Origin: a virus | Lineage: Duplodnaviria > Caudoviricetes | Strand: one strand, 5' to 3' | DNA length: 64,000 bases | IMG/VR virus record: IMGVR_UViG_3300020465_001196 | Shown here: in pieces, positions 58,536 through 59,599 of the stretch | Layout of the letters: every line of letters starts with the position of its first letter | Position numbering within the stretch: the first letter of the stretch is position 1 | The notes under the pieces: generated by a model | The model's database searches: none | What the model was told of the DNA's origin: nothing | Seen by the model: only the letters and a program-made list of their open reading frames with translations | Position numbers and translations under genes: made by a program

Positions 58536-59384
58536 ATGACAACTGAAAGTAAATTATCAAAATATTATAGAGCCCCGAAGCTATATGTTAAAATACCAAG
58601 TCAAGGTGCTTTTAATACTGATATGGAACAGTCAATGAGTGGTGAATTAGCTATAATGGCTATGACTGGACGTGATGAAGTTCTAACTAAAAATCCAGAT
58701 GCACTATTAAATGGTGAAGCTGTGGTTTCAATTATTAAAAGTTGTGTCCCAGGAATTAAAGATCCTTCTTTACTTCCAATTACAGATACCGATACTCTTT
58801 TAATAGCAATTAGAATTGCTTCAAGCGGAGATGAACACGAAATCAGTGCCAAATGTCCAAAATGTAAAACAGATAATAGAGTTACAGTTAATATGCGTAA
58901 TATATTATCATCAGCTAAACTATTAGAATCAACTTATAGTGTTAGATTAGATACAGGTATTACTGTGTTTATTAGACCATACACGTATGCTATGCAAACA
59001 GAAGCGGCATTGGCGGCATTTGACGAAACTAAAACTTTACAGAATTTAGCAAAAGAAGGTTCAGATGTTTCTGCTTCAGCTATGTCTGTATATAATAAAA
59101 GTTTTAACAAAATGGCTGATATGAGTGTACAACTTCTTGCAAGAAGTATTATAAAAATTGTTACTCCAGATGGTGATCAAGAAAGTGATCCAAATGAAAT
59201 TTTAACATTCTTACAAAACATTGATTCAAAAGCGGCAAAACAAATTGATGAAAAATTATCTGAGATTAATGCTTTGAACGTTGAGAAAAAAGTTGAATTA
59301 GAATGTCAAAATGAATCTTGCAAAAATAACTGGGTTACAGAACTAGATATCAATCCAACGGATTTTTTCGTCGGTGGCTCTTAA
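58536..59384 (+). CDS. Baseplate hub assembly protein (gp26-like) / candidate tail assembly chaperone
   Basis: Y.RAPKLY..IPS.G, MT..DE...KNPD.L.NG, D.D.LLIAIR.AS, CPKC and C....C zinc motifs. Confidence 0.75.
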   Translation: MTTESKLSKYYRAPKLYVKIPSQGAFNTDMEQSMSGELAIMAMTGRDEVLTKNPDALLNGEAVVSIIKSCVPGIKDPSLLPITDTDTLLIAIRIASSGDEHEISAKCPKCKTDNRVTVNMRNILSSAKLLESTYSVRLDTGITVFIRPYTYAMQTEAALAAFDETKTLQNLAKEGSDVSASAMSVYNKSFNKMADMSVQLLARSIIKIVTPDGDQESDPNEILTFLQNIDSKAAKQIDEKLSEINALNVEKKVELECQNESCKNNWVTELDINPTDFFVGGS

Positions 59385-59411
59385 AGGCCGAGCCACAGGA
59401 AATAAACGCCT
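59363..59411 (+). other. Candidate -1 programmed ribosomal frameshift signal
   Basis: In-frame T TTT TTC heptamer (59363-69), followed 4 nt later by a perfect 7-bp stem GTGGCTC/GAGCCAC. Loop AGGC could pair with GCCT at 59408. Confidence 0.65.
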
Positions 59412-59599
59412 ACTTTGAAGGACTAGTAAAAGAGACAACTGCTATACAAAAACAAATTACAGAAATTTGTTGGTATATGCGTGGATCGATTACATGGGAA
59501 CAAGCATGGGAGCTTTCTGATGTAGATCGTAATGACATTATTAAATATGTCGGCGAAAACGCAGAACGTTTTAAAAAGTCTGGACAGGTAGTTGTTTAA
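59369..59599 (+). CDS. Start-less -1-frame ORF (76 codons; gp51/gpT-like extension)
   Basis: Manual translation RRWLLKAEPQEINAYFEGLVKETTAIQKQITEICWYMRGSITWEQAWELSDVDRNDIIKYVGENAERFKKSGQVVV. It fills the gap to the next gene. Confidence 0.65.
   Translation, partial: RRWLLKAEPQEINAYFEGLVKETTAIQKQITEICWYMRGSITWEQAWELSDVDRNDIIKYVGENAERFKKSGQVVV

Follow-up and report, generated by a model that had tools for sequence, protein, structure and literature searches.

In tail assembly chaperone genes of phages, a conserved −1 ribosomal frameshift is said to have been described for gpG and gpGT of lambda, in work attributed to Levin et al. (in 1993) and to Xu, Hendrix and Duda (in 2004), and a frameshift reportedly yields E and E+E' of P2 as well (credited to Christie et al., in 2002). 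The lambda locus has a slippery heptamer of the form X_XXY_YYZ towards the 3' end of its upstream frame and an open reading frame (ORF) without a start codon in the −1 frame; its two products share their N-terminal body, and the gene adjoins the gene of the tape measure protein. In T4, gp26 and gp51 act as chaperones of hub and tape measure assembly and stay outside the finished virion. Here we analyze a gp26-like gene of a marine giant phage, in a stretch of viral DNA of 64,000 nucleotides (nt) (IMG/VR record IMGVR_UViG_3300020465_001196; Duplodnaviria, Caudoviricetes), hereafter the window. An earlier note, made from the sequence of the window, had proposed that this gene undergoes a −1 frameshift and produces a chaperone pair that connects T4 with lambda. 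We consider it very probable that translation of the gene involves a programmed −1 ribosomal frameshift. The comparative evidence backs this part of the proposal strongly, because the locus combines a conserved heptamer, a −1 ORF that lacks a start codon and is under selection, and in-frame fused homologs that are colinear with the predicted product.

Proposed slip site at the end of the gp26-like gene

The zero-frame ORF (positions 58536–59384, plus strand) encodes a protein of 282 amino acids (aa), P0001, which would be the short form of a baseplate hub or tail assembly chaperone of the gp26/gp51 family. Residues 42–261 of this protein match the Pfam family PF12322 (T4_baseplate) with 78.2 bits (cut-off 24.5), where the controls T4 gp26 and gp51 reach 215.6 and 177.5 bits, and P0001 also matches phrog_150 of the PHROGs database ('baseplate hub'). 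Its AlphaFold model has a predicted local distance difference test (pLDDT) score of 86 and gave 67 matches at E ≤ 0.001 in a Foldseek search of BFVD (best E 7e-26), including 'Baseplate hub assembly protein, bacteriophage T4-like', 'Gp26 base plate hub subunit [Aeromonas phage 25]' and 'Baseplate hub assembly chaperone [ACP17]'. The closest cultured relatives are jumbo phages at 29–41% identity (Phosso, PA5oct, Atu_ph07, the Rak2-like group and SCTP-2), and uncultured marine relatives are found at 67–99% identity, one of them in an IMG/VR genome of 328 kb that has terminal repeats. A search of the phage collection at the DNA level returned only short stretches at 73–77% identity, and the window therefore has no close cultured relative. 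Marine metagenome runs from 14 studies, and metatranscriptome libraries as well, contain DNA near-identical to positions 58500–59700.

The 3' end of the ORF reads CCA ACG GAT TTT TTC GTC GGT GGC TCT TAA and contains the heptamer T_TTT_TTC (59363–59369, plus strand) in the X_XXY_YYZ register, with the zero-frame stop TAA at 59382–59384 (plus strand). The −1 frame is closed by a TAA at 59327–59329 and is thereafter open until the TAA at 59597–59599; the first ATG, GTG or TTG in this frame is the ATG at 59477, 40 codons before its end. The products predicted from this arrangement are a short form of 282 aa and a long form of 354 aa (278 + 76), with the junction peptide PTDFF/RRWLLK (the slash marks the shift). 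A heptamer alone is common in the AT-rich DNA of the window: as a chance control, 12 of the 72 window ORFs of at least 100 aa have one in frame within their last 60 nt. Only in a single case among these 72, the gp26-like ORF, is the heptamer combined with a −1 extension of at least 40 codons. When checked against the sequence, the statements of the earlier note on the heptamer, the stem, the complementarity of the loop, the −1 frame and the product sizes are all correct, and the slip site that it pointed out is far beyond chance.

We compared the site with 109 related loci (85 of them unique, 26–99% protein identity) taken from GenBank phages, IMG/VR and metagenomes. All 109 carry an in-frame X_XXY_YYZ heptamer 10–40 nt 5' of the stop and a −1 extension of 51–101 codons; a conserved heptamer is what the earlier note had suggested looking for in homologous loci. 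The heptamer is T_TTT_TTC in 69, A_AAT_TTT in 12 and T_TTT_TTT in four, and the tandem form A_AAT_TTT_TTC is found in 39. The −1 frame opens at a median of 6 nt 5' of the heptamer, several close relatives having a TGA immediately before TTT_TTT, and among the 88 tabulated loci the +1 frame closes after 1–32 codons with a single exception. The codon that precedes TTT_TTC always ends in T (AAT, GAT, CAT, AGT or ACT), whatever amino acid it specifies, and the 12 sequences that have lost the second Phe retain slipperiness as A_AAT_TTT. Within the clade of the window (13 unique sequences, 67–100% protein identity), invariance is limited to 10–21% of third codon positions. Even so, GATTTTTTCG and TGGCTCTTAA, the latter at the zero-frame stop, stand out as the two longest runs of invariant nucleotides; GAGCC is fixed too, and synonymous sites are frozen at relative positions 14–29, versus 21% overall.

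A homopolymer error, or a recent mutation that split a fused gene, might create two overlapping frames of this kind; homopolymer runs are error-prone, and in-frame fused homologs do exist in other lineages. Such an artefact or decay is hardly credible given that the same split in the same register recurs in 109 loci from independent assemblies and in nine finished genomes of cultured phages, and that the extension is under purifying selection (see below). The earlier note had asked for a check on an indel in the homopolymer, and the T6 run is found without one in contigs of two DNA and two RNA-library runs from other studies. Substitutions nearby in these contigs, at 59381 and 59398, are both synonymous in the −1 frame, and one RNA-library contig (58994–59548) covers the slip site and is identical to the window. 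Sequencing error and a pseudogene are ruled out as far as sequence data allow.

The same homopolymer could invite slippage of the RNA polymerase, which would add a U in the T run and give a minority of mRNAs with fused frames. The run of T6 (T7 in four loci) is a site of the right kind, and contigs drop rare variants, so that slipped transcripts could be present at low frequency. It counts against this reading that polymerases commonly require runs of about 8–9 for productive slippage, and 12 loci have only A3T5 (A_AAT_TTT_C), a canonical site for tandem slippage with a short homopolymer. Both the strict codon register and the hairpin 5–7 nt downstream fit a ribosomal mechanism, and the RNA-library contigs show T6 without an indel; we regard transcriptional slippage as quite improbable.

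A helical domain encoded in the −1 frame

The −1 extension (59369–59599, plus strand; 76 codons and TAA) would form the C-terminal helical domain of the 354-aa long form. In the window's clade, the ratio of non-synonymous to synonymous polymorphism (pN/pS) is 0.21 in the −1 frame versus about 1.45 in the other two frames, a signature of purifying selection on the extension. The extension peptide is conserved from the first residues past the shift in 79 unique sequences, with the consensus xxxLxxAxPEEI...EIxxYxxGxISWxEAWxLSxxxR...IK..N, and its model consists of three helices (pLDDT 88). Conservation and model together describe a real domain, small and helical, that is predicted to fold with confidence.

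The 76-aa extension alone had zero matches in Pfam, PHROGs and NCBIfam, and a Foldseek search of its model against BFVD returned just the miscalled 40-aa ORF of Atu_ph07 and no gp51. A profile built on the extension found 745 protein clusters, mostly fragments of 51–102 aa from gene finders; the 150 best clusters include at least 15 proteins of 320–351 aa that carry the extension domain at their C-terminus, and PF12322 lies ahead of it in six of the six fused proteins scanned. The junction of the fused proteins ('..LDxSxxFRxKLxxxxxEEI..WxMRGxIS..') is colinear with that of the trans-frame product ('LDINPTDFF/RRWLLKAEPQEI..WYMRGSIT..', slash as above). The junction is therefore fixed, and the domain functions joined to the PF12322 body. 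In an uncultured phage contig (L114:820-2744), a short PF12322 gene of 294 aa is directly followed by a fused long gene of 346 aa (P0150). The short copy has an in-frame T_TTT_TTC after which the −1 frame stops one codon later, and this heptamer is possibly left over from an ancestral frameshift.

A frameshift is annotated in none of the nine GenBank records that we inspected. Seven of them call a small 'hypothetical protein' coding sequence (CDS) inside the extension, namely Phosso (L001, 2331–2561), BF (L090, 1776–1955), GAP32 (L091, 1779–1955), A4 (L092, 1773–1934), XaC1 (L093, 1785–1943), SCTP-2 (L094, 1845–2039) and RAS14 (L095, 1573–1740); Atu_ph07 has one of 40 aa (L003, 2424–2546), and in PA5oct the stretch is unannotated. 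Taken at face value, the calls in these seven records would make the downstream ORF a separate small gene, expressed through coupling, re-initiation or a non-canonical start as a free helical protein of 8 kDa. The proteins of 51–102 aa as which most matches of the extension profile are recorded point the same way, as do the ATG that overlaps the TGA stop in Phosso and Atu_ph07 and the internal product 26' in the T4 record, which starts at an internal AUU. Most homologs lack the independent start that the earlier note had named as an objection, however: in 74 of the 85 unique loci, the stretch between the point where the −1 frame opens and 10 codons beyond the site is free of ATG, GTG and TTG. 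The internal starts annotated in BF, GAP32, A4, XaC1, SCTP-2 and RAS14 fall inside the conserved peptide, which begins at the heptamer, 5' of all of them. A separate gene would also leave the heptamer, its register and the switch to A_AAT_TTT unexplained, and the in-frame fusions show the domain at work when attached to the PF12322 body. We judge a separate gene to be very unlikely, and the small CDSs are most likely truncated calls of the C-terminal domain of the long form. In practical terms, hundreds of protein clusters catalogued in public databases would then be fragments of long forms.

Downstream hairpin and proposed mechanism

After a spacer of 4 nt, the heptamer is followed by GTGGCTC (59374–59380) and GAGCCAC (59390–59396), which are perfect complements and enclose a loop of 9 nt. 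We assign to this hairpin (59374–59396, plus strand) the probable role of a frameshift stimulator. It has the 7 bp in the window that the earlier note described, of which just the 5-bp core GGCTC (59376–59380)/GAGCC (59390–59394) is conserved in relatives. The core (GGCUC/GAGCC in the RNA) is invariant in 13 sequences, one of them from Salicola phage SCTP-2 with a protein identity of 29%; it starts 6 nt past the heptamer and holds the zero-frame UAA in its loop, just past the 5' arm; the two outer pairs are kept in just four and seven of the 13 sequences. The hairpins of other clades differ from this one and begin 5–7 nt past the heptamer. In the A_AAT_TTT clade, the stem has 11 bp, with compensatory changes in five of them and pairing in 91% of cells versus 23–55% in slid controls; the compensatory stem changes for which the earlier note had suggested looking are thus found in this clade and not in that of the window.

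In addition, the earlier note had pointed to a possible H-type pseudoknot between AGGC in the loop (59385–59388) and the complementary GCCT at 59408–59411 (plus strand). This pairing is kept in 96% of cells, solely via G-U changes and not better than in shuffles, so that it is not conserved in the manner proposed; a pseudoknot is compatible with the sequences.

In the mechanism that we propose, most ribosomes would pass U_UUU_UUC, stop at the UAA at 59382–59384 and release the short form of 282 aa. A minority would slip back by one base with two tRNA-Phe on UUU_UUC, probably helped by the GC-rich hairpin that begins 4–6 nt downstream and encloses the zero-frame stop. The slipped ribosomes would read 76 more codons and complete the 354-aa long form, consisting of the PF12322 body and the three-helix C-terminal domain. 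The short and long forms would correspond to T4 gp26 and gp51; if G/GT of lambda is taken as a guide, the shared body might hold the tape measure protein encoded by the adjacent gene, and the extra domain might recruit another tail component.

The dnaX gene of E. coli (A_AAA_AAG and a hairpin) offers a comparison from a bacterial system, with tandem slippage, a hairpin a few nucleotides 3' of the site and two products from one gene. In dnaX, unlike in the window, the shifted frame ends almost at once and the frameshift product is the shorter of the two. An upstream Shine-Dalgarno-like element takes part in dnaX frameshifting too; at the window site, no such element is evident.

Several observations weigh against a programmed frameshift. 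A start codon does occur near the junction in 11 of the 85 unique loci, and in Phosso and Atu_ph07 the ATGA overlap means that the extension could also start independently. The short paralog of contig L114, which does not frameshift, also has T_TTT_TTC; for this reason, conservation of the heptamer may partly reflect a Phe-Phe motif combined with AT-rich codon usage, or a relic. T4 gp26 retains the two Phe residues with codons that are not slippery. The stem of the window is invariant in its clade and for that reason shows no covariation. By energy, the window hairpin is not significant (−12.5 kcal/mol, z = −1.2 versus shuffles), and the mean z-score of the minimum free energy over 84 loci is −1.1 (50 nt 3' of the heptamer). 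Finally, it is from sequence that we infer production of the long form, the frequency of slipping, the contribution of the hairpin and the partners bound, and neither the long form nor the junction peptide has been observed.

Relation to T4 gp26/gp51 and to lambda G/GT

In T4 gp26 (208 aa) as in gp51 (249 aa), the match to PF12322 spans the whole profile, and their genes (L089, 3803–4429 and 4480–5229) are paralogs within this family. In the complete relatives, from which we took the copy number, PF12322 genes number two in T4 and one each in PA5oct, Phosso, Atu_ph07, GAP32 and four complete IMG/VR jumbo genomes; SCTP-2 is not scored by the Pfam model despite having a homolog. Since the complete jumbo genomes that score have one such gene and T4 has two, the frameshifted gene would supply both forms, which supports the view of the earlier note that it represents a frameshifted gp26/gp51 pair. 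What does not hold is the correspondence to an upstream and a downstream gene, as T4 genes 26 and 51 are divergent paralogs, and the counterpart of the −1 ORF is just the long form's C-terminal tail and not a whole gp51.

The locus resembles T4 gp26/gp51 in the family PF12322, the predicted fold family, the short form and predicted long form with a common body, the probable role in hub and tape measure assembly and, for gp26, a conserved C-terminal Phe-Phe motif. It differs in that T4 uses two divergent paralogous genes and no slippery site, and in the length of the tail, which is about 48 aa in gp51 (PF28602) versus 76 aa in the extension. T4 gp26 ends in ...KEFFELL, where the two Phe codons are TTC TTT and therefore non-slippery, and gene 25 overlaps the gp26 stop; from this it appears that T4 has hard-wired as two genes what its relatives would make by recoding. 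The record of PA5oct has an 'ESI-MS/MS' note on the neighbouring gene and none on the hub gene, at most a hint that the hub gene encodes an assembly factor missing from the finished virion.

Homology between the extension and the gp51 tail is weakly suggested at most. An hhalign comparison of the extension alignment with the gp51 family gave E 0.003 at a probability of 10%, aligning the C-termini with a common M(S/I)PxER motif. The extra C-terminal family PF28602, carried by gp51 homologs in precomputed tables, is not recorded there on the fused or small-ORF homologs, and the extension profile had no match in the T4 genome at E ≤ 1.

The tandem pair of contig L114 has the same two domains as the window and a colinear junction, but both forms are hard-wired as separate genes. 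A joint reading of these arrangements, which we put forward tentatively and hold to be rather less than even in likelihood, is that the frameshift is ancestral in the whole gp26/gp51 family. The T4 genes would then derive from duplication of a frameshifting gene, with one copy fixed as the short and the other fused as the long form, and the L114 pair would be a living intermediate. The stimulator, on this tentative reading, would be a hairpin that encloses the stop and was re-invented in each clade with different partners, the balance of termination and unwinding setting the ratio of short to long form.

With lambda gpG/gpGT, the locus shares the four features given at the outset, the long product being a predicted and the adjoining tape measure gene a probable one. 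There is no detectable sequence similarity between the two systems, the body has about double the size and carries two Cys pairs, and the chaperone and tape measure genes are divergent, where in lambda the former lies directly upstream on the same strand. P0001 had no match among PDB sequences at E ≤ 10. Its comparison with the HK97 chaperone 2ob9 gave E 0.97 and a template modelling (TM) score of 0.41 by target in Foldseek, and Z 5.8 with a root-mean-square deviation of 5.2 in VIA-align, where 103 of 107 residues were aligned at rank 41, within noise. Searches of the PDB with the 282-aa model by Foldseek and VIA-align yielded solely helical-hairpin matches, with Z below 8. The link to G/GT drawn in the earlier note is thus an analogy that holds for mechanism and architecture, and so far not for demonstrable homology or gene order.

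The neighbour in question (56093–58441, minus strand) encodes a protein of 782 aa, P0366, which is probably the tape measure protein. Among its 100 named hits in the Atlas, 60 are TMP_3 and 33 PhageMin_Tail, with scores of 0.94–0.95, a result that we treat as a lead and not as proof, and the protein contains Gly-rich hydrophobic segments. It had no match in Pfam or PHROGs, and BLASTP detected no similarity to T4 gp29. The syntenic gene in PA5oct, GAP32, BF and XaC1 is annotated as a virion structural protein (seen by mass spectrometry in PA5oct), and the divergent synteny of this gene with the chaperone gene is conserved in the same four phages. Adjacency to a probable tape measure gene fits a role as a tape measure chaperone.

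The gap of 94 nt 5' of the chaperone gene contains two TATAAATA boxes (58457–58464 and 58484–58491, plus strand), possible late promoters of the T4 type, for which TATAAATA is the consensus. Across the window, the motif shows no enrichment (eight found versus 12.7 expected), and the boxes are a positional hint only. On the other side lies a convergent gene for a PDDEXK/RusA-like nuclease (59596–60093, minus strand), the stop of which shares TTAA (59596–59599) with the stop of the extension. Such tight packing speaks for a genuine boundary between genes where the extension ends.

A paper of 2022 in Virology by Vladimirov, Gautam and Davidson reportedly identified, as its title indicates, the genes that encode tail assembly chaperones in T4-like phages. 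Two later papers cite this work: the PRFect paper (PMC10885494) describes some T4-like phages as having one short and one longer, fused chaperone gene without a frameshift, and another (PMC12846349) mentions poly-T slippery sequences in 'TAC-N genes of T4-like phages'. It thus seems that the identification of gp26/gp51 as tail assembly chaperones, and with it the link to G/GT, was already in print in 2022, and probably the poly-T frameshift too; our literature search on gp26 combined with a frameshift or slippery site found no direct description of the slip. New here is an unannotated member of the family, and the value of the analysis lies in confirmation, annotation and detail rather than in discovery.

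For the biology of the family, the recoded gene would close an apparent exception, as T4-type phages had seemed to be without the frameshifted tail chaperone pair of nearly all long-tailed phages. The jumbo relatives would use canonical recoding in the very family that T4 has split into genes 26 and 51, which supports gp26 and gp51 as chaperones of tape measure and hub assembly. Frameshift, tandem paralogs and divergent paralogs would thereby offer three natural genetic solutions to compare.

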